Of a DNA stretch of 35,744 nucleotides, positions 6,576-35,744 are shown one piece after another. Origin of the DNA: Collodictyon triciliatum (Eukaryota); assembly GCA_043381765.1 (NCBI GenBank), contig JBHJMP010000516.1, positions 1 to 35,744 of the forward strand, read 5' to 3'. The notes beneath the pieces were generated by a model. That model was given only the letters and a program-made list of their open reading frames with translations, made no database searches and was not told the DNA's origin. Position 1 is the first letter of the stretch; every line of letters starts with the position of its first letter. A program made the position numbers and the translations under genes.

Positions 6576-8621
6576 GTAGACCCAGCAGAAACAAAATATG
6601 TCGTAAATCCCATTGCAGGCACCTCAGCAGCAAAGTAAAGAGTATATTCAGTTCCATTGAATGCTGGGTGAATCTAAGGTCATTTTTTTTGGTTGAATGG
6701 TTTATTTCATTTTTTCTTATATAAATTCAGTGTTTATGTGGTACAAAGTAATTTTTCATCGATATGCAAAAGATAATAAAGAGTGCCTGCGTAGCCACAA
6801 TACTTCCTTGAGAGTCTTCAACTTTAACTTGGGGCACTGGTATGGGAATTTTTACAAAAGTCTTTCTGGCTGACCCAAGAGATGAGTATACGATTACGGG
6901 TGTTATCAAACCGGACTGCAAGCTTAAATTTTTTTATTTGGTTAATATTATATATTTCAATTGTTTTTAAATACAAAGGATGGTATCAATATATATTTTT
7001 ATTATTTTATTACATTATTATTTTTAATTTATTATTATTATCACTATTTACTTTGCGCGAAGTTTTGTAGCTTCAGCTGTTGTATTCGGTACAACAGAGC
7101 CAGTCTTTGTGAGCAACATCGATATCATATCTCCAGCAACCTTACATTTCCTCCGACTTATTACAACCGACAGCGTTTCGGGTGAGCAAATATATATATT
7201 TCTGATTTATGAGTACCTGCTTCGAATTGGAAATCCCTGTAGACAAACGAACGATATAATCCTAATCATCCACACGTATGTATATTAAAATATGTATGAA
7301 TTCATTAACATCATCAGGAATGGTAATTTAATTATTTTAATTATTTTGTTTTTTTGCTGACATTTGCCACAACTCTTCTTTCCGTTCCGGTGATACCATC
7401 ATGGTGTTGGAGAACAGCTGTGGCATCCCGCAGGAGGGCAACTTTGGAATTCTATAAATAACAAACTCGCTATGGTGAGAATGTTACGGACAGTATAAAG
7501 AAAACTATGCAAAACCGATTGTAAAACAGAAAGAATGAAACAAATACTAAAATATAAAAATAGTAACCACGGGCGTAACTGTGGTAACCATGGAAATTAT
7601 AGAAACTATAATATGTAGAATATGATAAACATAATTAATATAATGTATTGGTGTAAAATTATCATGATAGCATTTCATACTTGAGTATTTTCATCCACAA
7701 TACGTTCCGTCCGTGCCATTTGAAAGAGGATTTCTGTTCCATGGAGTATGGATTCGCCTATTCGTCCATATCCTGATATGTAAACATATTTTTTCTCCTT
7801 TAATTCAGATTCAAAGTTAATGTATAAACACATTAGAATTGAGTGAAATAATTGTGGAAGAACGAAGACGCACCTTTCAGCGCAGGGAGACTAGTGTAGT
7901 ATCCTATATTATATTATAATCTGAACGATATTCTTAAAATAAATATATAAAATTCACCGCAGTTACACAATAAAAATAATGCAAACCTGTCCAGTATGAC
8001 ACTGAATTATCAGCATATGGAAAGAAATCCTTTTGCCATAATGGCCAATCACGCCCAACCTTTCACATTTCAAAATTGTAATTCTTCATTATATGATATT
8101 GTGCCACTTCATTTCGAATTTTTCAAAGACGTTGTAATCTAGTGCTCAAAAACCTGCTTCGTTGCATTGATGTAATCTGAAAGTGTGGAGTAATGAACCC
8201 TTGCATTTAAACGGGCAGAATTTTCATTAATATAATCCATAAGTAAGTCCAGATTCTTGAATACCATCCTCGCATTCTGAATCAAATCAACAGACAATAT
8301 TTTTCATTTAGTAAGTTTTAGATAATAGTACTAAAAAAAACCTTACCAACTCATTTTTAGATTTAATCGTGCAAATAAGTGCACTCGAAATACTTGTTTG
8401 CTTCATCGTTATGTTGGTTCTTTTTGTTTCAAAAAATTAGGCAGAATTGTTACCTGAAACGTAAAATCGCAACCAAATGGGATGAGAATATTAGGCGTTC
8501 GATAGTATGCAGCACGTTCTCGTGCCATTTGAAGAAATTCTGCTGCTCTTTCTATTTTAAATACACCAGAATAAATTGAGAATATGGGGAGCACTAACCA
8601 TTTTATGAAAATACTGAAAGC

Positions 8622-8718
<97 letters not shown>

Positions 8719-10226
8719 TTTTAATAGAATAAAGAGAAAAATAAATAGAAGCAATCAAAATCATAAGTATAAGAAATAAAGTGGATTTTAAAATAGGAAA
8801 TCTAAGTGACACGAATGATTAGTGTTCCTACCTTCAGCATTTGATTTCGTCACATATGATGGTGGCTTAACGATAACTGGAGGATCTCCGTCTCCTTCGG
8901 GAAGATTCTGAAAGTAGTTTTAAACCACAAGTAAGGTTCTCCGGTATTTTTGTATCATTATTTTGTATGTTCACGTTGATGTAATCAAATTCATGGATTA
9001 AATACGTAAAAAAAAAAAACATTAAAATAATCCAACAAAAAGAAAACGAAAAGAATTCCCAAACAAAGATTTTAGCAAATAAGAAAAATTCTTATTTCGT
9101 CAGTAGTTGTATAAAATTCAAAATACTTGAGTCACACCATGCTCCCAACTGAAGCCTGATGGTGTGCAATAGTGATTGTCCATAATGTGGGTGAACATGT
9201 CCTTTCTTGAACCGTGAGAACGAGCGCCCCTCCATGTGAATTCCATCGTTTTATTTTTCATGAATTCTCCCTATTTTTAAAAGCTTTCTTAAATAAAAAA
9301 TGGTATCATTACCAAACATATTTTCTCTTCATTGATTACGAGGGCATATATCAGAATAATTATTGTCAGGATATTTTCCCCATGAAAATTGACATATACG
9401 ATTTACACCAAGTTTGATTAACCTTCAATCTGAAGTCAATTCGATTGATAACGTGTCCTTCAAACCCGATATCGTGGTACAGCCAAGGCAAGCTACTAGA
9501 TGCTCCAAAGGGATCTTTCGATTTCAAGGAGGGTTACAATAAGCCGGAAAAAATATTGAAAAGGTACACATATTTTAAAATAAATGTTTACCATGTATTA
9601 AAAAGAAAGCAGGAAACGAATAAAAAGTCCAATACAATAAGTGAATGCGAACCAATATGCCATCCAACTTTTGGCATTATACCAAAAGTTTCCTTCAAAA
9701 ACTTATGACCCAGAGTAAGTTGGTTCACAATACCGTCATATCGAGTGGATGCCTCATCGTGCATACACATTCCTGGGGTGGGGAAACGAATGAAAATAGT
9801 GAAAGAAAATCGTATGTAAATGATAAATCATACATAACATTTGAGTCAATCCCTAATCACTAAAATGAAACACGATTTACACAAGTTTCATATGAATCAC
9901 ACTAGTTGAATCTCAGTTTCAGACACCATCCCTTACCCCCGAGAATAAACTCCAATTGTCCATTTTCAACAAGGCCTTTTACTTCAGCTTTACGAAGATC
10001 AGTTTGTTGGTGCCACCATCTTTCGAAAAAGGCACTATAATAGCCATAACATTTTTTTTAAAAAAAATAATAATCATTTACAAGATATTATACTTTCTTT
10101 TCTTTTTAAGAAAATTTTTATAGATATCATAGATAAATTGGAGAATAAACTGGGAAGGACAATTATATAATTGAACCCCTGTAAATAAAATTTACAAAAA
10201 CATTTACTAACTAAAAAAATACACTG

Positions 10227-10324
<98 letters not shown>

Positions 10325-10897
10325 CATAAAGAAAGTAATGTAATAATGCCAACATAAATTAGCTACCTATCCAGGTACCGTTTATGAAACACCCATATCA
10401 CAATCCAAAATAAAAAAATCAAAGGATATAAAAGCTAGGCAGAAAAGATGAACAGAAAGAATTCATTACATTTCGACTTGAATGTATTTTCTCTTAGGGT
10501 TTGCAAGCAACTCGGTGACTACATTATCAATAATATATTGAACCTCGAGCACAAAGTAGTCCTACAGAAAAATATCGCAGGTTTCAAATAGGATAATTAA
10601 GATTAAAAAAAAAAACATCCTCTTTAAAAGACTTTTAAGGTGGTGTGAGCGATTATACGTCAAGAAAGATATCCAGTGTGTGCTAAACTCCAAGTCACAT
10701 AAATAAAATCGGGCACAAATGCCAAATCTACTCACGTCAATGGTCATGAGCCAACCGACATCGTCATGGGAGTGGGCAACAACCCACACATCCAGAAACT
10801 CTTGGTTGGTGAGCGGGATCGCAGTCACACTTGAACTGGGCGACGTCACGAAGGCAGCACACAAAGCGAGGCCGAAAAGTAGGCAGATATTGCGCAT
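2739..10897 (-). CDS. Lysosomal/secreted alpha-mannosidase, glycoside hydrolase family 38, MAN2B2-like, many exons
   Basis: Signal peptide then HSHDDVGWL (Zn site). Also MHDEA, GWHIDPFGAS (nucleophile Asp), NILIPFGCDF, DFFPYAD..YWTGYYTS, QHHDGITGT, LYTDSNGLE, GNFYP, LLRLQHLYE and C-terminal IEPMEIRTF with TAA at 2739. Confidence 0.95.
3638..3745. repeat. 9-bp tandem repeat (AATCAAATA)n, intronic
   Basis: Direct tandem repeat. Confidence 0.9.
4114..4200. repeat. (CAAAACAA)n tandem repeat, intronic
   Basis: Direct tandem repeat. Confidence 0.85.
4838..4943. repeat. (ATAAT)n microsatellite, intronic
   Basis: Direct tandem repeat. Confidence 0.92.
6313..6570. other. 100-N assembly gap (6364-6463) flanked by poly-T/poly-A tracts
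   Basis: N run and homopolymers inside a mannosidase intron. Confidence 0.95.
8622..8717. repeat. (AAT)n microsatellite, intronic
   Basis: Direct tandem repeat. Confidence 0.95.
10230..10322. repeat. (AAT)n microsatellite, intronic
   Basis: Direct tandem repeat. Confidence 0.95.
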
Positions 10898-11551
10898 AGC
10901 CGATGCTCCAGAAAATGAGTTCGCCTTTTCTTTTCTTTTCAGTGGGGATCAGAAATATGTTGCTAGGCAGTGCGCTGCGCAGCTGAGGCCAGATAGGATA
11001 GTTTGGTGGCAGCCAGGGGAGCAAGGCAAGGATGTTTCTCAGGAGGAAGGAGAAAAAAAAAAAAAAAGAGTACGCGATTCAATGTCACTCTAGTGAAAAA
11101 TAAAGGTGCATATATTTTTTTCTGCTTCATAAAATGGTGTATATGTCGACTTGGTGAAGAAGAAAAAACACTCAAAACGTCGCCAGAAACTGCGCAAATG
11201 CGTAATCGCGCGTAGCTTTGACATTTGGCAGCCTCCTTTTCAGACAGCGGTTTGTTCAAGGCAAATATAGGCTGTAAGAAACGCGAGTCGATACAAATAA
11301 GTAGAACGTAGACGCGTAGAGATGAAAAACAAATGGTGTGAATTTACACTTCAGTTGTGGTTCGTTTATTTGACCTTAGGAAATACATCAGTACACGTTT
11401 GCAGGTAAAATGTGCACAGCCTTATGCAAGCCATCGCGTTGTGGGAGGCTATTCGAGAGACGAAGCCGCCGCGAAGTAAAACCGATGGTGAGATGTTGAA
11501 TGGATGGAAGAGCCGTAATGGTAGGTCGGGTGATTCTGTGCGAAGATAAAT

Positions 11552-11706: not shown

Positions 11707-12035
11707 CTAGTGGGTGTCCAGCAGATGGTTCAACCAATTTTCTTGCTGCTTCTTATTTTCGAACTACACAAGTAAAGAAGATAATATCAGGAACAAAGTG
11801 CGAATGCCCCACCTATGAAAAGGGCATAGATTCTGCACTATAAAATATAACATAACTTTGAATCGAATAAAGGGAAAAAATAGAACATAATTTAGCATGT
11901 CTCTACCAGTATGTAATAAAATTTAGAGCCGGAGTTGATTCTCAGGCATTCTGCGTTATTTGAGAAATTCCATGGCGATATCTTTTTTTTTTGGCGTATA
12001 TTTTTAGGACGTATGGTTGAAACAGAATGCCAGTA

Positions 12036-12131
<96 letters not shown>

Positions 12132-15100
12132 GAGTAAAATTAATAGCTCGCTTCGGTGGTTTAGAAATTACCTGAAATTCCTCTCCAAGGTCGATGCAAA
12201 TAGGCTCACTAGGTGATTGTATGTCCTCATAAATAAGCAAGCATCTTCTTTGCTTGTCCAAGATAAGATGTTTTGCCTCCCATTTGGCAGATGGCACATT
12301 CTGGCACACCAAAGCACACCCGGAATATTGGTGGGATGACATACGTTTCAATGGTAATTTGTTGTATAAATTACTGCACTCCTTGCAGAGGAAGCGAATT
12401 TGACCATTCACTAAATATGTTTCGTTTAAATGCTTCCTCCATGACCCATCCGGGTCCGTTGTATTAAAAAACATCGACAAGCTCTCAGCTCCAGTAAATC
12501 GAATAATTTTTCCATTATATTGGTCCTTCCATCTTATGAAGGCATGGTCTAGTTCAGTGTAGCTCATTTCATTCGAATTAAATTCCACCTTGTCAAGGTC
12601 AAGTATTCTGACAACAGCTTGAAAAGCCTCGGACTCGACAAGAAATTGTGAATCTATTAAGTAACCTAAATGCTCAACAGAATGAGGTCCTATAGGATTG
12701 TCGCACACAAGTCCAAGCCTCAGCTCCTCATTAAGCGATTGAGCATGTAAGGTCTGTACTTGAAATAAAGTGGGATAGTTTCCAGATAATTGACTGCCAA
12801 GCAAATCGAAATCATTAGGCTTATTGATTCCATTTTTCCAAAAATAAATCTCAAAATTATGCCCATGTCCGCACGGCAACACTTCATGGCTGGAGTCGAG
12901 CAAGTTTGGTATTTTTTGAGACCCACACTTCCTCAAAGGGAGTTCATTCAATACGCATTTAGGGCACAAAATCTCCACTTCATCCGGAACCAAACTCATC
13001 TTGTTACGAAAAATATTGCGAACATGTGCCAAGACATACTTAAGGCATTCAAAAGCAAGAACATTTCGGGAATCTTTTCGAACAGATATATAAATTGCAT
13101 GGTTTTCCCTGTCAAGGTGCGCACAAAATAAGAAGCTACAAAGTAATCCGGTTCTTGGTAAATCATACTTGCAAAAAGTAATTATGTAATCCAAACTAAA
13201 GTACTCATATCCCCACGGAGTCTGGGAGGTGACAAAGGGGCATCGAAGCAAATCAATTGCAAAATCTGTGAAGCAAGATTCATGTATATATTTGAAGCAC
13301 AACTTAGCCGTCATGAAACTGTGACACATCCGCGGAGGTGTCAAACTCCAGATGGACGTGGGTGGACAACCAGTCGAGGCCATACAGGGAAAGGAATAGT
13401 AATCACCTCCTAGAGTAGGTACAGCTATGTTGAGGAAATCAAGAGCGTTCATGATTGCTTTTCCTTGATTGGGGAGGGATTGCTCGATTGCTTGAATGAG
13501 TGATTCAGTAGGACAAATGCCAGTTCCCCAACTGTTCTTGATTTCTCTTAGGATGGCTGATACAGACTTAAATATTGCTCGAGCTCCAATAACGATGAAT
13601 TCTATCGATTTTTGACAGGGTGATAGTAACACATCACTTGTTTCATGAAGAAGGAGAATAAGGTCATGTAAGTCTGCAGGGTGAGTAAAATATCTGCCGA
13701 TATTCTCGACCAGATGTACTGGAGTTAGAAAGCTTGAGTATGGCGTAATCATGGATTTGATCGAATCCATGAACTGAATTTGGTTGCCAGATACACTTTT
13801 TATGACATGGGGGAGTGTTGAAGTTGTTTTGGCAATCAAATCACGCAAGTGTGCCACATTTTCTCCGGTGACATTGCTCGTCGTGACAAAATCTAGAAGT
13901 TTCAACTTGTTGGAGTAGATCAGCATCACCTCTCTAAATTCGTTGGTAACATCTTCACGATAGCCTGGTAGACTGAATTTGGGATGGTCTGCATGGGTGG
14001 CAACAATAATTATATTTGGACTATGAGATGAGGCTGCAATCAAATCAGCCCATTCTACAAAGCGTGCTCCTCCATAACCCACTGACATATTCCAAACATA
14101 AAGAATTATACAGTTTGGTGTCACCAAGGCCTTGTTGAGTAATCGAAATTCATCGAATCCTCGACATAAACAGAATGAATGTCTTGTGTTTTTTTGGTTA
14201 AAATCCGTTGTCAAGCCGTTATCAATTATTTTTATTCCAAGACGAACTGCACTTTTTTGTTTACAAACATTGACAAAGTTGGATGTATCACTCTTTAATG
14301 ATTTCATAAGGGAACGCTTTCCGGTCCCAATATCACCAAGAAGCAAAATGCGGTTACGACCCCACTCAGAGATGGCCTTGGATGTCTCTTGAAAAGTACC
14401 AAGTAATCGATCTAATCCTTTACCAAGCAGCTCACGTTGAGCTTCGATTAACGGATTGTTGTCAAATTTGAAGTACCTTAGTTTCCTCAGATATACCATA
14501 GTCGTCGGAAGCTTGCTTATCTAACGGGACATTCGAATTCATTTTAAAAAAAGGTACACAGTCGACTCAAAATTAACATGAAAAGAATATTTGTTCAACT
14601 ATGGGTCGCAAGTAGGACTTTATCGTCTGAGAATATTATTTCAATACATGCCTTATTAGAACTAATATCCAATCGCATTAATCTATTAAATATGTATATC
14701 CAGCTGGGCAATGACGTTAGCTATTAAAAAAATAGGGTTCTCTCAATAAACTGTTGAAAAGAAACCAAAAAAATTAGGTTGAATTTCATCAAATACCATT
14801 CCATTATATTTCAGCTTTTTAAAAATAAATGATAATAATAATTATAACAATAACAATAACAATAACTTTTTTAGTAAAAATTTCAACCTCGCTCAAAAAA
14901 ATAAAAGAGGTAAAATTGAAAGCCGAAATAATACTACTCACATTATTTTCTGATACATCTAATTCGTACACATCATCACGGATATATGGCGGCAAACGTA
15001 TAATTATGTCGGGAATGTAAGACAACTGCTTTCCCTTTAGATCAATAGTCCCAGAACCGTGTTCTATAATCCTGAGAATATCTTTTGTGTCGGCTCGCAA

Positions 15101-17260
15101 ATTGTTTCCCTCCACTGAAAAAAACCGCAACGAATGTGCTGAGTGAAGATCAGGGTAGTCTAATATCTATATCATATCAACTTACAATGAGTCGCGCGTG
15201 ATTTTGTTTTCTGTGATTTTTTGTAGCTACATTTACTGGAAAGTAAATTCCCCTGCACGGCAGAAAGAATAGAAAAAGAGAAAAAGAAAACACTAATATA
15301 ATATCAACTATATATCATAGCAATACCTGGTTGTGTGATATATCCAAATGAACCAACAATTGGAATTGATTGATGATTGTTGGTAGTTCTGTAAACTATG
15401 ATTATAAATACATCTTTGTTGAGGGACTTGGACCTGTCTCACAGTTTTCTCTAAAATATTAATACAAGTAATAATATTATTTCGAGCATAGTATATACGA
15501 AAGAATTAAATTGTTAAACCTTGTTTCTGGATAAAGATAAGTATTGAAGCTCACTAAGACTTGAAAAAGAATTCGGTAATACTCTAATCTGTTTTAGTTC
15601 AGGATTAAAAACAAATAAGTCTTTGATGATTTGTTCTTTAGTATTGTGGGACATCAGGTCAGTATTGTCATGGTATTTGGTTTGCTTATATGATTCGATA
15701 ATCTGAATAGTACATGATTTCCTCCACTTTCAGAGCCCGCAACAAAACACCTAAGGTTAACCATAACTCCAATATCGTCAGGTAAAAAGCTTATCTGCGA
15801 TTAAAAAAACATTCAATTCATCTAAACCACTGCATGCATAAAGAGAAGTGTACATCAAATTGGCTACTGAAAGAAAACATTCTTGATGGCATAATCTTTC
15901 GCAATATTCTCTTACGTTGTTGTTTGAAATATCTAACTTCGTGATTGATAGGAGATGGTGAATGTTAAAGTCGCAGAATTGCATATTTAGATTCCTGTAT
16001 ATTGCCTCTCTCCTAATTACCAATGGAAGTAATTGGAAGTCGATGAAGCTTTTTGAATTGTAGAAGGGTAGGCTTGTAATACCCCTAGGCAAATCTGTAA
16101 TCTGGACGAATTTATTTGTCAAAAGAGGTTAAGTATAATTAATATTTGCGATAATATGTTTGGGTGGGTACATTATTAGTTTTGAATAAGTATTGTTAGA
16201 GTGTTGTTATACAGGGTTTCCAGCAATATGGAAATGCTGTAATTTGTTTAGCTCTGTAATCCACTCGGGGATCCACGATAGCTGTTTCATTTTAACCATT
16301 AATTAAGGCGATACTAATCGACCTTTTTCATATATTGAATGATTCGATTGCTTGGCTACCTTATTGTTCTGAATAGATAGGGCACGGATATTCTTAAGGG
16401 ACCGAAGTTGGGTAGGCAGCTCGACAAACTAGTTGCAACAAAATATTGATTTGCTTTATGCGATGCCAGTAACCAAATATTACGCATTCTTTTTTTTAAA
16501 AAAATATATAGAGGGGATTAAAATAGAGGGGAAAAAACCTTGTTTCCTGTGCTTTCATCTCCCAAATTGATTTCATCCAACCAACTCATCATGGTGAGGG
16601 TCTCTGGTAAGGTACTCACCTACGATAATTTGAAGAGATCGATAGTTGAACACACAGAAACCTTAGAAAATGCATTCTCATAGCCCCCTTAGCATTTTAT
16701 CCTTGCTGACTTTTTTTAACTTGATTTTCTATTAATTAGTTGTTTTTTTTTTTTTTTGCTTCTTTTTTTTTTAAAAAAAAAAAACATTTCAAGGTGACGC
16801 TTTTTCACCTGTGTTCCGACGATGGACAACACACGCAGTTTCCGAAGAATTACGATCGCCTCGGGAAGGCTATGAAGACTCTTAGAGTTGATCAGAATAC
16901 GCGTGGCACGGCGCACTGTCCCGGGTGGGGCAACACCAGCAATTATGGGCTCCACATCCTTAAGCCCTCGTGGAAGTTGCTCTTGGTGACTTCCTCGCAT
17001 CCTATGCCGGTCGCAGTACAGCACACGTATTATATAAATTATCATGGTCTCCGTCCAAGTTTCGAATGATCAAAATCAAATAGAGCACACAGTTAACTAT
17101 TTACAATCATATCTTTCCTACGTCCCCTTTCTTGCAAATTATTTGTGGTACAGAGGCCCAGGGCCATACGCTGGTGCGATGGCAACAACACCCGGTGGTC
17201 ATGCTTCAACGGAAAAGAAGGGATGTGTCTTTGGGGGAGATACGGTTGTGCTTGAGCCAT
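11707..17260 (-). CDS. Roco-family protein: LRRs, degenerate ROC GTPase, COR, Cys/His module, C-terminal PH domain; no kinase domain; start codon uncertain
   Basis: LRR exons at about 14650-16900 (e.g. IRVLPNSFSSLSELQYLSLSRNK). A large exon 12172-14520 carries ILLLGDIGTGKRSL, IILYVWN, IIIVATHAD, TSNVTGENV, a COR-like region and CPKC..CGHGH. The PH domain is completed by spliced exons DLGEEFQ|ISPWNFSNNAECLRINSGSKFYYIL|FENKKQQENWLNHLLDTH* (TAG 11707). Confidence 0.88.
12036..12129. repeat. (AAT)n microsatellite in a Roco intron
   Basis: Lies after the CAG|GTAATT donor at 12171; it explains the poly-Tyr tail of the ORF call. Confidence 0.93.
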
Positions 17261-18260: not shown

Positions 18261-21200
18261 TTTTTGCCAAAGCACTTTCGTGATACGCAAGTTTATGTAA
18301 TGGCATAAGTTCAGAATATATCTCGTCTCATTCATTCTACACATCCACCGAACTGGGAATGAAACCAAGTTGCCCCCTTTGTAACTTCATCATATGCATT
18401 CCTGTATCATCTAGATGATGTTTCGGATGGACCTAAACTATATCAAATTTACGGAGGATCTATCTCTTTCATTTGTTGTATTTATGTGTCCATTGATTTC
18501 TTCAAAATGGTCAAAAACGAAAAGAATATCAACATTATATCGTCTGTTCCAACAATTCTCCTCACACATTCCGTGTGGTGGGACTTTATCTTCAGCTTTG
18601 TAACCTTGATTGAAGGAATCGGAGAAATAGGAGACGATGAGAATGTAAATTTGCCTCACAATCAGACTCATCTACAACCATCATACTTTCAATTTCGTTG
18701 TTGGAAAAAAAGTATTCCTGAATATATATTATTAATTTATAACCTGAAAATAGGATGATGCCTGTGTTTACATATCACCTTTCACCCAATTCAGTTTGTT
18801 CAGTTCAGTTACTTACTTTTGGCTGCTTTTTATTGGTTTGTGATATCAGAATCGAAACAAACATTCTAAAGGGAATGAAATAAACTCGGAAAGACTTTTT
18901 TTTTCTAACAAAAGAACATTTCGTTGTAGATGTAATTGTTTCGATGTGGTTCCCTTTCTTCGCCAGCCATTATCTTCTACCGTACTACCATGGTATTACT
19001 TTGGGGTTTGGTGCGATAAGCTCCTTAGTAATTGTCGCCGCTGGTCAGTCAGGTCCATCTGTTTTGAAGCGCTGCTGGGTGAAGTCATTCAACGGTATTA
19101 CAGTTCAATACTTTATAAACACTTAATTGGCTGTGATAAAAAAAAATCGAATTTGGTTCAAGTTACGATATTGGCTTCTATTAACAAATAGATTCAGGCA
19201 TAAATCCTTATAACTGGGCCCTGATAAATGTCCCTTTTGGGTTTTACTCTTTCAGCTCTCTTCTTCTATTTGGCTATTGTTTTTTGAACCTCCATATGGA
19301 AATCAAACGTCGATCGCAGTAATTTTTGTGATAACCAAACGATTCATCATGGTGTCAATCTTTTTCACTTTTTTTTTTTTTTTGCTTGTAGGATCTGAGA
19401 ATGAAGAATTTTAGTACAAGTTTATTTTCGCATTTGTTTTGTAGATGATTTTTATAGAAGGACTGACATGTTTTTATCAAAAACTAATCATCACTTTTAC
19501 ATATATACCCAGATATAGGCCTTCAGAAAGGGTATTTTTTTTGTGTGATTGTGTGATTGTGTGATTGTGTGATTGTGTGATTGTGTGATTGTGTGATTGT
19601 GTGATTGTGTGATTGTGTGATTGTNNNNNNNNNNNNNNNNNNNNNNNNNNNNNNNNNNNNNNNNNNNNNNNNNNNNNNNNNNNNNNNNNNNNNNNNNNNN
19701 NNNNNNNNNNNNNNNNNNNNNNNNAAAAAAATTGGCAAAAACCATAAAAAAAATAAAAAAAAAGGAGGGGGACAAAAAAAAAAAAAATTCCCCCCCCCCC
19801 CCCCCCAGAAGGAAAGAAGAAAAGAAAAACACAATATATAAATTGTGCAAAGAAATAAGTAAAGAACGTTAAGCAACCAGATGTTTTCAAAAGTCAAATC
19901 ACCTAACCAAAAAAGAAAAGAAAGACGTATTATCAATCACTTACACAAACTCTATTAGGTCATCGAGAAGAAAAGCAGCATCACCGAGGCCATCAGCAGA
20001 GAACTGGCCACTGCACGGTCTCTAGCTATGAATCTACGCCGCGGACAAGAGAAAGCTCACGCACTGGTCACGAGCACATCGCCCATGCAAATCCTCCAGC
20101 ACGGGCCGCTTCTCTCGTGCCTGCTGGATACGTATATCGAACGCGCCCGTCGCATGGAGCCGTCCGAATCGACGGTGCTTTCATTCCTGCCATACACTTC
20201 CGTGACCATCCGACGAGACGATGACCGCAGCAAGGCAAAGATGGCACTCGGGCGGGTGCAAGTGCACAGCGACGTCCGCAGCCGACCGACACACGCACGC
20301 AAGTGTGCTGAGATTGGGGAGATGAAGCAGAAGGCCGGGCGACGCGGGTCCGGGCGGGTCGAGTTTGACCACGCATGGGGCATCGCGGCAAATCCACGAA
20401 GCGGACACGTCTATGTGGCAGACCAGTTCAACCATCGGATCCAGATCCTGAGCGCAGAGCTTGAGTATATCGGGGAGTTTGGGCGACGCGGGACGGAGGC
20501 TGGGATGTTCAACAATCCGATATCGGTCTGTGTGGATCCGTCGGGTGGCTGCGTGGTTGTGGTGGACAACGGAAACCACCGGCTGCAGGTCTTTACGGCG
20601 GATGGCAAGCATGTGCGCACAATCGGATCAGACGGATCACAGGAGCTGCAGTTCCGCAACCCGCTGAATGTGGCGATGGCGTATAATGGCGTGATGTTTG
20701 TGACAGACACGCGGACCGAGCGGGTTCAGATGCTGACGGAGGACGGCAAGTTTCTGCGCTTTGTCGGGCAGCGGGGCTGCGGAGAAGGCGAGGTCGGCAG
20801 CGCAGAGGGCGTTGCAATCACGCATGAGGATGAAGTCTGTGTCCTTGCGCGGGGCGGGAATCAGATCCACGTCTTTGACATCCTTGGCGACNNNNNNNNN
20901 NNNNNNNNNNNNNNNNNNNNNNNNNNNNNNNNNNNNNNNNNNNNNNNNNNNNNNNNNNNNNNNNNNNNNNNNNNNNNNNNNNNNNNNNNNNNNNNNNNNN
21001 NNNNNNNNNNNNNNNNNNNNNNNNNNNNNNNNNNNNNNNNNNNNNNNNNNNNNNNNNNNNNNNNNNNNNNNNNNNNNNNNNNNNNNNNNNNNNNNNNNNN
21101 NNNNNNNNNNNNNNNNNNNNNNNNNNNNNNNNNNNNNNNNNNNNNNNNNNNNNNNNNNNNNNNNNNNNNNNNNNNNNNNNNNNNNNNNNNNNNNNNNNNN

Positions 21201-29260: not shown

Positions 29261-30258
29261 ATGAGCAGCGCCTTCCCTCCTCTCCGCAACGTTTCCTCTC
29301 CGTCTCCACCTGTTCGATCAACTCCAAACACGCCTGTTATCGCCGCTACTTTTCGTCGGAGCACTGGAAATGCGGCTCCGCAACAGATTCGCCTCGGTTC
29401 ACCGCTATCTCTAACCGCAGAAGACAGGTTTTTTTTTTGTATTCACCCAAGAATTGTTAGCAGGTGCCTTATTCTTTCTTTTCTTTTCTTCGCTCGGTAA
29501 GGGTTCTTTTCTATTCTCTCACTATCTTTCCACTTATGAATGAAGTCTTTTTTACTTTTTAATGTTCATTTGTGAATACTCTTTATGTTTTCTCTCTCTG
29601 ATGGATATGTGGTTGAGCACAGCCATCAATTTTTTAAGGTGACTATTTATTGCTACTCGGCAGGATGCTCAACGAAAGTAGAAAGAAGCTTTATCCGGAG
29701 ATTCAATACCGAACCACACACCATGAACCCATGACTGAGCCAATCACACGTCGCATGTTTACGTATCAACCACCAGAAAGAGACCCAGACGAATATCGGC
29801 GGTAACCTATTTGATTGCATTAATGGATATGCCTAATACACCTCTCCAATCCTACAATGGAATCATCATTTGTTGAACGAAACAAGCCGGGGTTTTTTCT
29901 TTTTGCCATCATTATATGATATTTATGTGCTACATTTCTTCTTCTTTTGTGATATTGAAGGGCACTGAAGCTGATTCCACAACCTGCTTTATCACCCGAG
30001 CGAGTTTGTCGCCGAAAGCCAATTGAAATAGGTATATACTTTTGAGCACTATCTAACCATTGCTGATGTCTGATTATGAAATTTAAACTTTATACCTTCT
30101 AGTAGTCACTTCTACATACTAAGATGCTAATTTGTTAATGCCCAGAACCGAAGCCGTCGGCAAAGCCTACTTATGGGCGTCGTATGATGGACAGTAGCGG
30201 CCATTTAATGAGAAAATCCAATGACTCCCAATTTTCGTTTGCAGATATGTTTTCCTAG
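29261..30258 (+). CDS. Small uncharacterised Pro/Arg/Ser-rich protein, 4 exons
   Basis: Phase-consistent GT-AG splicing: MSSAFPPLRNVSSPSPP..TAEDR|MLNESRKKLYPEIQYRTTHHEP..DEYRR|ALKLIPQPALSPERVCRRKPIEI|EPKPSAKPTYGRRMMDSSGHLMRKSNDSQFSFADMFS* (TAG 30256-30258). Confidence 0.7.
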
Positions 30259-30924
30259 TCTCTTCATACCGGATCCCATTTTATGATATACTTTTTACTC
30301 TTTCTGGCATTCTATCCTCCCTTCCTCTCAAATGCTCCTGCGCATTGTTCATTTCCTTTCCCTCGTAATCATATCATCAGAGGACAAGTTTGGTTGTCTG
30401 TCCTTTCTGTTTCCCCCAATTCATTCGTCCCATTTGCTGAGCTCACTTTTTTTTTTTTTAAAAAAAAAAGGTTCGCAAAAAAACTTGGATTTATCGCTGA
30501 ACTTCATTATACACGTTTTCTTCTTTCATTTCATCTAAAAATAAGGTTGGTTTAATGTCATCTGTAAGTGAACATTTTACCAGAAATGCTTTGGTCAAAG
30601 GAAAAGAAAAAAATGAAGAGATGGCAGTAAAGAAACATAGACATGACGTTCCTACGGAGCATAGTGAAATGCGCAAAATAATAGCATCTAAAAGCCGAAA
30701 CAGAAGAAAAATGGCAACAAGCGATTGAGATAGACACAAAAAATGATTTTCATTCTTTTCCAAGCTTTTAATTCAGCCTTTTTTTTTTTTTTCATCTTCT
30801 TCCTGATGGCTTTGATTATCCCAATGTTCTCTTCATCGGAAGCAAACCATTATGGCATTTGCTGGTGCTCGTCAGTGCTTGGGTATTTTCATCAACAAAC
30901 TCTAAAATCTATAACATGTATATT

Positions 30925-33900
30925 TCATTCGTCCACACAATTGATCTTCTGATTCTTTTTCGTATAGTTAGTTCGCCTAGGGGGCATGTATAATAATTTA
31001 GCTCGGAGCGGAAATACAAAGAAGATATTATGAAAAAAAAAAGAAGGTAGAATGCAGAAAAACAGGACGGCTACCTCATTCTCTGATAAATCCAGGGATT
31101 CGATCCATGTCATTCGACACAAAACCGTAGGAATCTCTGTCAGCTGCAGGAGAAATGGTAGCAGATCAAAGTGTGATATGCATGAATATGGAGATTAGAA
31201 AATGTTGCATGGGATAAATCCGGACTGTCCCTTTCGATTTATCAACATACCTTGTTGCGACTGAGGCATAATTTTCGAAGATTTGTGAGTATCGTCATAG
31301 ACTCTGGCAAGTAAGATATCTTTTGGAACGAATATGGGGATTAGAATCCGATTCAAACATCTCCATCTAATTTCTTAGCGAGAAAGGACTAAGAAAATAA
31401 TATATTGCAGAGATGAAAACCTTGTTCTGAGATAAATCGATTGAGGAATAGATCTGTAGGCTTTCCAACATTTCAGAAATATCAGCAATATTTTCATCCA
31501 CCTCGACGAATTCGTATAAATCTAGATTCATCAATTCACCGGCGGTGTTAAAAAAAATTTCTCGATTATTATATCTGAGGGCTTCCTCCAAGGAATCCAA
31601 GGAACTCTCGCTATTTGATTCGTCATCTTCTTCATCATCTTCTTCATCACCAGCCTCCCAGCAGGGCAACATGGAGAATCCCGATGGTGCTCTTCTAATA
31701 AACATTTCTCTATAGTCACCCATTGGCAAAGATTTGAGTTTCTTTAATTCTACAATTCCACTCGGCAAGCATTCGATCTAATCGTAAAAAGAGTGATTTT
31801 AGGTGGTTTTTTTTTTTTTTACTAGCAATAGCCATATATTCGCAATAATCATACCGGATTTCCTTGCAAGTACAGCCCCGTTAGATTCGTTAAAGTTGAA
31901 ATTCCATTTGGGATAGACTTGATTGTATTGCCAGATAGATCTAGTAAGTTCAACAGAACTAGAGACAAGAGCTCGACCGGAAACGAAGAGAAATCATTAC
32001 AGGATATGCTCAAGACACACAGCCTTGTCAAACATGATATCTCTATAGGTAATGCACTAATATTGTTGTAGCCAATATCCAAATATTGAATCCAGTCCAT
32101 TTCACGAATCCAGTTCGGAATTTCCTTTATCTTTATGAAATAGGCATGATTTATTCATAATATCAATAACGTGGTCTTTAAAAAATTTTAAATAAGTAAT
32201 ACCATATTGCGGTTGAAATCAATGACTCTTTTCCCTGGCAGTTTCAGAATATCTTTCGGCAGCTCAACTATGCTCATGTAATTTGAAGAAGCACTGTATT
32301 TTTTGAACGAAAGCGAATTCAACAGCTTCTCAAGGGATGGGTGAAACATGTTGTCTTTCAAGGCCAAGTTAGTAAGCCCGGTTAGCTGGTGCAAGTCAAT
32401 TAAGTTGGAAATCTAAAATTAAGCATTTCTATCTGAGAAGTGTGATTTATTGATTTAAATGGGAAATTTTCTGCATTTAGGTTTCTGGCGAGGAAGTTGA
32501 GAAATAAGGGAATCAAAGAAGCACAAAACTTCAATAAAATATTGAGTGGACTAAACATTGATCAATTTTATCAAAAGAAGAAAGACCTTATTTCTTGACA
32601 AATCTATATTAATAAGTGTCGTCATGTTTGAGATAAAATCAGGAATATCAGAAAACTACAAGATTAAAGTTATGTTCCTGGGGGTACTGTAAATAAATTT
32701 TAACTGTCACAACTTCTTTATAGTGCTATAGAAAACTTTACAGAGAAACAATATGAAAACCATACACTGTTTTGTCGCATACAAAGCTTGGTAAGATTGG
32801 ACAGTAGACTCATAGTTTCAGGAAGTGATGACAACTACAGATTAGCATTTCTATCAATTATACAAGTCGCAAACAATTACGTCGGACTGTAAAAATATCT
32901 AGAACCCCTTCCTTCCCTTGAATCGAATAAAGAGGGAAGAAGACAGCTGTTCTATCAATTTTGAAATTCACTTCATATGAAATGCATGATAAAATTTACC
33001 TTATTGAAAGAAAGATCTAGTGAATTTAAAACGCCCCATCTCGGAATTAAATCAGATATAGTCATGGCCATGTGATTTGCGTATATCCGATCGTATAGAT
33101 CAAGCTTATGCACCTTGTCTTTTACTCCAATATAGAACCGATACCGAGAGGGTAGATTCTCGTAGAACATCATATCACTGATTCCAATAGGTGCCCTTTC
33201 GATAGCGAGTGCCCCTGAGCGCTGAAATTCCAATTGTGTCAAGGAACTCAAACAGGTAATGTCTTGGGGAAGCGATTCAATCTAAATGAACATTTCCTTC
33301 ATTTAAATGCTAGGAATATTAAAATGAAGTAGATGGATTATGAAAAGAAAAGCGAATCATACTTTGGTAATATGAAATACATATGCAAAACAAAACAAAA
33401 TTATATATTAAAAAAATCCTTGATGAAAACAGAACTTCTATTCCAGTTATATCAAGATACTCCAGCCAGGTCATCTTGCACAACACAGACGGAAATTCAG
33501 TCAACTGAGTATACATATGCAATAATTTCAAATCATGTTGGTTATTGTATGCTTACGATGCGAAAACCTAATGAATAATTTAATTGCGTATGTGCGTTTT
33601 TGTTCCTTAAGAAAGCCGAATAAACCTTGTTATGACTTAAGCAAAGTGTTTTCAAGTTTGTAAGCACCGACATGCTATCAGGCAATCTCTCGATCTTGGT
33701 CATGCAATATCGCAGATATAATGAATTTTCTTGTAGTTAATATACACATATTTATTGAGTCATCTGCTTGTTTTCTTTCATCGAAATCAAATAATAGTTT
33801 GTATGTAAGGTTCTCACATGATTGAAAGAAAAATCTATAGACCCACAGTCGATCCATGTATCAATGCGATGGGATATATCATCAAGCTTCTTATTTGAAT

Positions 33901-35058
33901 ACATTTTATCATATAGATGCAATCCCTTCAGATGCTCATGCAGTTGGTTCGAAATAGGCTGGCCATCTTGATCTGTATCTTTTTTTCCCCCCCAACATGG
34001 TAGTGCTACAATTGACATATGAGCTCTCTTGACACAAGTTGAGGAATCTTCTCCAATTTCTAATACACCCAAGTTTTGCAAAAGGCTCATCCCTTCATCC
34101 AGAACTTCAATCTATGGACGAGAAAAAAAATTTTTTTTTTAAAAAAAAGTGTCATAGTCAATGTTAAAACTGAGATATAGAAACCGGCGCAAGATGAACT
34201 AACAGGATTGCCTTCAAGTGCAAGAGATGTTAAGTTTGTCAGGGAGTAAAATTCGCTTGGGAGGAACGATATGTAGTTGTTGTTCATGTTGATCAACTCT
34301 AGCCATGTGAGTTGCCCGAACCATTCTGGGATTAGTTGAATCTACAGAGTGTATGAAATCGTAAATCAAATAGCTAAAAGTTATTCGAACATATTGCGGT
34401 TTCTATCAGGGCTATTAGCAACAAGACGAAGCAAGTACCTGATTAAGGGACATATCGAGGCTACGCTTTCGAGGCAAAAGCAACAAGTCTGTTGGGAGTT
34501 GCGAGAGGTTTGATTCGCTTATGTTGATCGAATTGATATCAAATTCTAGCATATCAAAGAATTTTTGGCTGTCCGGATGAAAATGGTTTGTCCTGAGGTC
34601 AAGGAAGGTGAGCCCATTAAGTCTTTGAAGATCACCTATTGCAGATAACTATACGATGGGCTCTATTTAGTGGAAGGGTAGTATATGTCAACAGAAAATA
34701 AAGAAAATCTCAAGACTTTGGGAGAAAGGGAATAAATATCTCGTTCTGATGACTTCAAACATGGTTTTCAGAGAGGCCTATCGCCCCAATTTTCTCCATC
34801 TTACAAATACAAGAAGGGAATTCGGAAATCTAATATATGAAAATATTAGACTGAAATTTATAAAAAAATATTTGGGCGTTGGCATAAATCGAAGAAAAGA
34901 AGAAAAATTAAAGTTAAAACGGTTTCATTTGTAATAATGAATCAAATAATTGCCTGATTAGAGTTCAAAATTATAGTTTCTAATGCAGCAAGCAGTGTGA
35001 AAGAATCAGGAATTTCAGTGATCTAATGATGATGATGATGATGATGATGATGATAATG

Positions 35059-35090
<32 letters not shown>

Positions 35091-35568
35091 GATAATAATG
35101 ATAATAATGATAATGATAATAATAATAATGATAATGATAATAATAATAATAAGAGGCGATTTATTGAGTTTTGTATGAATATATTAGAAAAGAAAATAAA
35201 GATGAATTCAAGAGTGCAAACCAAAATAAAGTAAAAATTATGGAGAAGTAAAATTCTCTCCAACTCGTCATCAAGACTGAAGCATTGGAAAAAGCAGAAG
35301 CAAAACTCAAGAAAAAAAATGCAAAAAGGATAAGCCCAGCAATAAAGGAGGAAGTCTATTTTACCAAATTGAAGGACAGGTCGATCGACCTGAATCCCTC
35401 CCACACGGGAATCAACTCCAGAATGCTCGTCAGTCGTTCGCTTGTTCGAGAGTGTTGGCACTCAATTGGAGCTCTTTGGGGCAGCTCTCGGACCCGTTTT
35501 CGAGGGATGATGCGCCGCGGCGCCTTCCCAATTGTTGACCTACGTGCGGTGGCCCTTGTTCTCGCCAT
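30925..35568 (-). CDS. Large leucine-rich-repeat protein (about 17 exons) with N-terminal histone H3 tail-like peptide; 3' end uncertain or degenerate
   Basis: Exon 35365-35568 starts MARTRATARRSTIGKAPRR and ends SIDLSFNL. It is followed by phase-0 exons of 23-aa LRRs, e.g. 34954-35022, 34761-34829, 34204-34341, 33626-33694, 33436-33504, 32587-32655, 31855-32130 and 31075-31143. Confidence 0.85.
35025..35151. repeat. Compound (GAT)n/(AATGAT)n/(AAT)n microsatellite in intron 1 of the LRR gene
   Basis: Direct tandem repeats. Confidence 0.9.
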
Positions 35569-35642
35569 CTTCCAAGGACACAAACATAAGCGAACAGTTG
35601 AGAAGAGAAGAATTGGTTGCTCGTCTCTGGATTTAACTGATG

Positions 35643-35744
35643 CAAAAACAAAACAAAAACAAAAACAAAAACAAAAACAAAAACAAAAACAAAAACAAAA
35701 ACAAAAATAAAAATAAAAATAAAAATAAAAATAAAAATAAAAAT
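35643..35744. repeat. (CAAAAA)n then (TAAAAA)n tandem repeats
   Basis: Direct tandem repeats to the window end. Confidence 0.92.

Follow-up and report, generated by a model that had tools for sequence, protein, structure and literature searches.

An LRR gene of Collodictyon triciliatum that starts with a histone H3-like tail

Introduction

Why would a gene for an LRR protein start like histone H3? The question is raised by one end of contig JBHJMP010000516.1 in assembly GCA_043381765.1 of Collodictyon triciliatum, where a minus-strand ATG (35568-35566) opens a frame whose first residues follow the N-terminal tail of H3. The whole stretch of DNA that was analyzed, 35,744 nucleotides long, is called the window here. 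It belongs to a gapped draft assembly and holds 1559 N, with the nearest gap about 9.4 kb from exon 1 of the gene. From the letters of this stretch, the original prediction had taken the frame for an H3-tail mimic fused to a large LRR protein. The start codon that it named, in the context AAG-ATG-G (A at -3, G at +4), and the peptide that it quoted were both reproduced by translation.

Results

The H3-like tail opens a 17-exon LRR gene

The LRR gene runs from 35568 to 30816 on the minus strand and consists of 17 exons with 871 codons plus a stop, open throughout. All 16 introns (72-342 bases) are in phase 0; 15 of them have GT-AG ends and one has GC-AG ends, the GC donor of intron 2 at 34953-34952 (minus strand) being the sole non-GT donor. 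In most exons the coding sequence amounts to exactly a single 23-residue LRR, and the repeats stay in register over the junctions, E1-E2-E3-E4 included. An LRR strand within the starting exon and about 16 more LRR exons had been predicted, and 16 further exons spliced in phase 0 were indeed found. The features are as follows.

35566-35568, minus strand: start codon, A at -3 and G at +4, the single in-frame ATG of exon 1 (one Met in 68 residues)
35488-35565, minus strand: H3-tail-like segment, 26 codons, 11 Arg plus Lys and no acidic residue, GC 0.62 over the first 22 codons
35365-35568, minus strand: exon 1, 68 codons, comprising the tail, a 15-residue linker and the first LRR (residues 43-68); the donor GTAAAA comes next
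34954-35022, minus strand: exon 2, one 23-residue LRR, GC donor
34761-34829, minus strand: exon 3, one LRR
34439-34648, minus strand: exon 4, 70 codons, counterpart of exon 12, no Pfam match
34204-34341, minus strand: exon 5, 46 codons, two LRRs, LRR_8 at 34.8 bits (cut-off 27)
33818-34111, minus strand: exon 6, 98 codons, a long exon with an LRR, an insert and the start of an LRR
33626-33694, minus strand: exon 7, one LRR
33436-33504, minus strand: exon 8, one LRR
33000-33281, minus strand: exon 9, 94 codons, internal, counterpart of exon 1 in the second eight-exon copy, begins with an LRR
32766-32834, minus strand: exon 10, one LRR
32587-32655, minus strand: exon 11, one LRR
32203-32412, minus strand: exon 12, 70 codons, counterpart of exon 4
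31855-32130, minus strand: exon 13, 92 codons, four LRRs, LRR_8 at 44.7 bits (cut-off 27)
31421-31777, minus strand: exon 14, 119 codons, a long exon with an acidic insert
31251-31319, minus strand: exon 15, one LRR
31075-31143, minus strand: exon 16, one LRR
30816-30908, minus strand: exon 17, 30 codons plus TAA stop, C-terminus

The gene contains an internal duplication of an eight-exon unit (E1-E8 and E9-E16), in which the counterpart of E1 is the internal exon E9. The C-terminal part of exon 1 is homologous to the ends of E9, E6 and E14 (tblastn within the window, E 0.001, 0.06 and 0.29). Because this downstream part shares both homology and donor position with internal exons, the reading frame of the tail is fixed.

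The Pfam scan covered the eight exons of the gene that exceed 30 codons. Two of the eight (E13 and E5) match LRR families above the gathering cut-offs and six have no match. The best PDB matches of E13 are Leptospira LIC10831, LRRD1 and SHOC-2, at E-values of 6e-51 to 1e-36 that are summed over several repeats. From these matches and the repeat pattern, the gene product is predicted to be an intracellular LRR protein of the SHOC2/LRRD1 type, about 871 residues long. It shares with the 23-residue LRR proteins of the SHOC-2, LRRD1 and Leptospira LIC type the matches of E13, the LRR_8 scores above the Pfam cut-off, and a start without a signal peptide-like sequence. It differs from them in three long exons whose non-LRR inserts are unmatched in Pfam, in the eight-exon duplication, and in the H3-like tail.

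As a side observation, introns of phase 0 only mean that any exon of the LRR gene could be skipped with the frame kept.

Other features of the window

A second LRR gene (12004-17069) lies on the same strand. A P-loop GTPase region in its 838-codon exon (12004-14520) matches Roc weakly (19.6 bits for PF08477, below the cut-off of 27, and E 0.0056 for the Roc domain of LRRK2); the roughly 650 residues after it match no family. When this 838-residue ORF was searched by word index against proteins of near length, none was found at E<=1e-5. Judged by its predicted domains, the gene possibly encodes a divergent ROCO protein. It shares strand, window and LRR style with the tail-bearing gene. The latter differs from the ROCO (LRR-Roc-COR) type: Pfam found no Roc, COR, NB-ARC, NACHT or chromatin domain in its eight scanned exons and no Roc in two downstream ORFs either, and the gene stops at 30816.

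Elsewhere in the window, a GC-richer single exon on the plus strand (19959-20891) encodes NHL repeats (PF01436, E 2.2e-17) and is cut by a 773-base N gap. A minus-strand exon (10562-10948) has a weak match, below the cut-off (E 0.0051), to the start of the glycosyl hydrolase family 38 N-terminal domain (alpha-mannosidase-like). Microsatellites occur at 8409-8720, 10074-10358, 11892-12167, 35018-35161 and 35637-35744. Some are long triplet arrays, which translate to poly-Ile or poly-Tyr where the frame is open; others are built of six-base T-rich units. One of these microsatellites falls within intron 1 of the LRR gene. No Rfam family or tRNA was found within the window.

The likeness to H3 is in register from the initiator Met

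After the Met, 13 of the first 17 residues of the tail are identical to H3, and positions 23 (K) and 26 (R) match too. The differences within residues 1-17 are K to R at position 4, Q to A at 5, K to R at 9 and G to I at 12. Position 18 is again K to R, and residues 19-22, 24 and 25 are unrelated to H3. Thr3, Thr6, Ser10, Thr11 and Lys14 are kept, so that no Thr or Ser among the first 11 residues is lost.

The 68-residue exon 1 product was compared by phmmer with 177,635 distinct PDB sequences (E<=10), which yielded 133 matches, the best at E 0.0032 and 20.9 bits. The best 60 of these 133 are all histone H3, H3 peptides or H3 chimeras; among the matches listed, one chain is named Cse4 and starts with the H3 tail. 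The alignments to H3 run from residue 1 to residue 1, with the H3 tail in register from Met1. The E-value is modest because the match is short, not because it is poor. The identities that had been predicted (13 of 17, plus K23 and R26) were counted again in the alignment to PDB H3, and the replacement of K4, K9 and K18 by Arg was seen both there and in the translation.

A wider HMMER search of 1,835,955,588 representatives at E<=0.001 returned a single match, P0003, which is not an LRR protein. P0003 has 185 residues and contains three tandem H3 tails, which shows that 5' pieces of H3 do get copied in genomes. No single H3 protein reached E 0.001 in this search. In a clustering atlas, exon 1 resembles unnamed clusters at 0.92-0.88, and clusters at 0.81-0.79 contain Histone (15%, 37%) and PAF (24%) members; all of these serve as leads only.

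Could such a likeness arise by chance? It was tested in fixed register against the H3-tail copy in residues 110-135 of P0003, where Val replaces Ala at position 1, hence 12 of 17 matches. Given the composition of the peptide itself, 2.15 matches are expected and the probability of at least 12 is 3.3e-9 per N-terminus. None of 2,000,000 composition-preserving shuffles went above 10 matches. A likeness to H3 by chance is very unlikely, even allowing for millions of gene starts scanned (the millions being an estimate).

The same numbers bear on the explanation that the tail is a generic Arg-rich targeting peptide, such as a classical nuclear signal or a mitochondrial-type presequence, which resembles H3 by composition. 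The tail is indeed highly basic (11 basic and no acidic residues in 26), its PDB E-value is only 0.003, single H3 proteins fall short of E 0.001 in the search of 1.84 billion representatives, and a very large scan brings a look-elsewhere effect. Against this stand the fixed-register probability, the shuffles, none of which passed 10 of 17, and a match that starts exactly at the initiator Met. We consider this explanation quite improbable.

The tail is not followed by a histone fold. No Pfam family was found for the exon 1 product at E<=10, PF00125 included, and the later exons are LRRs, in agreement with what had been predicted. On its sequence, the tail-bearing protein is not a histone, as it has no fold. 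Compared with H3 itself, the protein has the tail in register from Met1, with 13 of 17 residues plus 23 and 26 alike and with Lys14, its small neighbors and Lys23 kept; it differs in that the tail is joined to LRRs instead of a histone fold and has Arg for Lys4, Lys9 and Lys18.

Relatives and transcripts

Relatives that share the tail were sought in several ways. A word-index search with the exon 1 product among longer proteins gave 48 candidates, none at E<=10, and an alignment of four exons (A1), searched in the same manner, scored 8000 candidates, none at E<=0.1. A metagenome scan with exon 1 gave 596 pattern matches and no relatives. With exon 13, six metagenome loci were found at 30-43% identity, which are generic LRRs; no tail look-alike is present at these six loci (best E 0.31). 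The atlas look-alikes of exon 9 are LRR clusters only. Overall, no ortholog or paralog with exon 1 was found in the protein (longer lengths), HMMER and metagenome searches. The long Roc-COR-like ORF of the neighboring gene has no relatives either, which suggests that the lineage is poorly represented and that the homolog blanks are weak evidence.

Three sequencing runs of one study, only guessed to be RNA, have small matching shares with the window (0.13, 0.10 and 0.00). The contigs of these runs are confined to 30800-31714, 32002-32341 and one short repeat close to 32900. None lies on exon 1, and they have no bearing on expression.

In a separate observation, contigs of two runs (again, only guessed to be RNA) join across 30882-30966, 31311-31410 and 32144-32241 on the plus strand. 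The ends of these joins fit plus-strand introns (GT..AG, GT..AG and, after a 2-base shift, GC..AG), antisense to the LRR gene, and none of the three matches an intron of that gene. Either a spliced antisense transcript or deletion alleles might account for the joins.

The clearly H3-like piece is short

Four of the 17 residues in positions 1-17 are changed relative to H3, versus seven of the nine in positions 18-26 (Fisher P 0.0135). E1 aligns with E9 over residues 23-67 (BLASTP, E 7e-6). From this difference in change and from the start of the E9 alignment at residue 23, the clearly H3-like piece is therefore about 17-19 codons long. The matches at positions 23 and 26 sit, as read from this alignment, in Arg/Lys-rich sequence of LRR-module origin. 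The H3 tail of 26 residues in the original prediction thus stands in part: the likeness is strong over about 17-19 residues, while the remainder is homologous to the internal exon E9.

Base composition sets exon 1 apart as well, with a GC content of 0.56 (0.62 in the first 22 codons) versus 0.26-0.43 in the other exons. The split in residue change and the E9 alignment are what the joining of a short H3-derived piece to an LRR exon would give. Descent from the 5' end of an H3 gene and convergence on H3 are both conceivable origins of the piece. No second copy of the tail and no repeats flanking exon 1 that would suggest an insertion were found within the window. Codons 1-17 carry at least six amino-acid-changing base changes relative to H3 (hand count). 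This level of change is compatible with neutral drift after capture, so that conservation is not arguable from one sequence.

These data also speak to a neutral origin, in which a fragment of an H3 gene or pseudogene (the start and about 17-19 codons, perhaps with the promoter) was fused to the first LRR exon and now supplies the start codon only, its likeness to H3 decaying. Such a relic would account for the abrupt end of the H3 likeness (4 of 17 versus 7 of 9 changed) and for the LRR-module sequence in the rest of exon 1. Copied H3-tail fragments exist elsewhere, as in P0003, the change in codons 1-17 is compatible with drift, and no conserved relatives were found. However, the three lost lysines have all become Arg, with the charge kept, and the Thr and Ser residues of the first 11 are all kept, which hints at constraint, although the sites are too few for significance; the entire gene is also intact. 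We regard the neutral relic as unlikely.

Apart from the tail itself, a peptide at 29345-29400 on the plus strand resembles tail positions 6-20 (about 10 of 16 identical; tblastn E 0.06 with the exon 1 product and 0.01 with P0003). It has no DNA similarity to exon 1, and the likeness is probably a coincidence in a GC-rich stretch.

The sequence upstream of the start codon

The frame upstream of the ATG at 35568 is open as far as the window end, 176 bases away. Three features were distinguished around it.

35637-35744, minus strand: microsatellite of six-base T-rich units, reaching the window end and ending in an acceptor-like pyrimidine tract plus CAG (35647-35637)
35569-35636, minus strand: presumed 5' UTR, 68 bases, GC 0.41, CCAAT at 35616-35612, in-frame peptide without LRR pattern
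35540-35587, minus strand: uORF of 15 codons, with an out-of-frame upstream ATG (35587-35585) in weak context, overlapping the main start

The prediction had itself cautioned that the frame stays open upstream and that a possible acceptor lies at about 35637; both are present. The main frame is open through the microsatellite because the repeat has no stop. An acceptor at 35637 would give phase 1, whereas all 16 introns of the LRR gene are in phase 0. The dinucleotide AG directly precedes the ATG, and GC falls from 0.62 in the first 22 codons to 0.41 in the 68 bases upstream.

The alternative to be weighed at this point is that the Met is not the N-terminus, with upstream coding exons beyond the window and an internal H3-like segment, or that the locus is silent or wrongly modeled. 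An internal Met would be in line with the open frame to the window end, with the long pyrimidine tract and CAG that make a good acceptor-like site ending at 35637, with the AG right before the ATG, and with the counterpart exon E9, which is internal and begins with an LRR; the out-of-frame upstream ATG and the GC donor of intron 2 would also suit a mis-modeled gene. Yet the upstream in-frame peptide has no LRR pattern and gives way to the microsatellite, the acceptor would be in phase 1 against 16 of 16 phase-0 introns, the ATG context is strong, and the composition shifts at the ATG. On balance, this alternative appears rather unlikely, and the Met at 35568 is the putative N-terminus.

A putative import and docking peptide

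What, then, could the tail do? Our preferred reading is a tentative one, possible on the present sequence: a captured or convergent piece of H3 may provide the start codon and a basic tail, and this tail may serve an intracellular LRR scaffold as a peptide for nuclear import and for the docking of H3-tail binders. From the H3-like piece of about 17-19 codons, the gene would gain its start codon and the protein an N-terminal extension that is very basic and probably disordered. The initiator Met would be removed, since the next residue is Ala, and an H3-like free N-terminus would be exposed; small second residues permit Met removal (PMC8166343). Acting as a short linear motif, the tail would carry the LRR scaffold into the nucleus via the karyopherins that import H3, and it could also dock proteins that read the H3 N-terminus without need of Lys4 or Lys9.

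The import step can be set beside the H3 tail, which is itself the H3 import signal (PMC5677370). As described there, K14 and K23 of H3 fill two lysine pockets of Kap123, small residues must flank K14, and the resulting consensus is small-Lys-small, at least six residues, then Lys; earlier work cited in the same article found that K9Q and K18Q did not reduce import (PMC5677370). The tail agrees with this loose consensus, by sequence alone, through Gly13-Lys14-Ala15 and Lys23 (PMC5677370). Positions 14 and 23 are the only two lysines kept from H3, whereas Lys4, Lys9 and Lys18 are Arg. Residues 23-26 also fit the classical Lys-Arg-x-Arg nuclear signal.

The preferred reading is favored by the ATG context, the sole Met of exon 1, and an upstream sequence with no LRR pattern and a drop in GC, followed by a microsatellite. 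Several points go against it. The Kap123 consensus is very loose, and Lys23 lies in the E9-aligned part, outside the clearly H3-like part. Residues 1-11, which are the best conserved, are not the part described as bound to Kap123 (PMC5677370), and import alone does not explain them. In addition, no ortholog or paralog with exon 1 was found in the searches above, the upstream frame lacks a stop and holds an acceptor-like site at 35637, a weak upstream ATG is present, exon 2 has a GC donor, and neutral drift could account for the changes in codons 1-17.

Another possible function follows the original prediction, namely that of a long H3 decoy or adaptor that is not lysine-modifiable at positions 4, 9 and 18. 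It would either titrate or recruit kinases or the readers and writers of chromatin, or serve as pathogen bait on an LRR sensor. The free Ala-Arg-Thr start and the kept Thr3, Thr6, Ser10, Thr11 and Lys14 are consistent with such a function, as is the change from Lys to Arg at three modifiable sites, which keeps the charge. Moreover, N-terminal H3 mimicry is described as an established binding mode for PHD, Tudor and NuRD proteins; however, the H3TM motif given in the same source needs Lys4, where the tail has Arg (PMC8166343). The eight scanned exons also lack NB-ARC, NACHT and chromatin domains, so that an NLR with an integrated decoy was not recognized among them. We find the decoy or adaptor very doubtful. 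Only slightly less so is a further reading, that of a dedicated pseudo-histone of about 17-26 residues at the free N-terminus of an LRR scaffold, which has unmodifiable Arg4, Arg9 and Arg18 and keeps Thr3, Ser10, Thr11 and Lys14. It would compete as a decoy for the readers, kinases or proteases of the H3 tail, act as an adaptor for them, or be the bait by which an LRR sensor detects attackers of host H3 tails; it seems quite unlikely.

Discussion

The H3-like start of an LRR gene in C. triciliatum appears unusual, on the evidence of one sequence in a draft assembly. H3-like linear motifs in non-histone proteins are exemplified by influenza NS1, G9a and LIG1, which are short internal or C-terminal histone mimics. 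These mimics comprise 4-6 residues, keep the modifiable Lys and are not N-terminal, unlike the tail of the LRR protein.

Another parallel is offered by the H3TMs (VRK1, PCLAF, BCL11, SALL, FOG and others; 48 in human), non-histone proteins which mimic the start of H3 with their own N-terminus once Met is removed (PMC8166343, Chen et al. 2021). The tail of the LRR protein would resemble them in this respect (PMC8166343). The motif of the H3TMs is Met, a small residue, Arg, any residue and Lys, and four residues are described as common to them (PMC8166343). The tail differs in that about 17 residues are alike, whereas its Arg4 departs from the Lys4 of the motif (PMC8166343). None of the families named in section 12 of PMC8166343 is described as LRR proteins, and no paper joining an H3-like tail to an LRR protein was found in open-access PMC and bioRxiv. 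By its sequence, the tail would represent histone mimicry that is in principle like that of the H3TMs and far longer.

Described histone mimics share four to six residues with H3, and the 17-residue near-copy found here is far longer. If a cellular protein starts in this way, it would exceed in length every endogenous H3 mimic known to us and would be the first to sit on an LRR scaffold. As a one-off relic, the tail would be an oddity from a poorly sampled genome. If the tail proves to be expressed and conserved, it would provide a natural experiment on which residues of the H3 tail matter without the main methyl- and acetyl-lysines, and a clear example of a new gene start built from a histone gene fragment.
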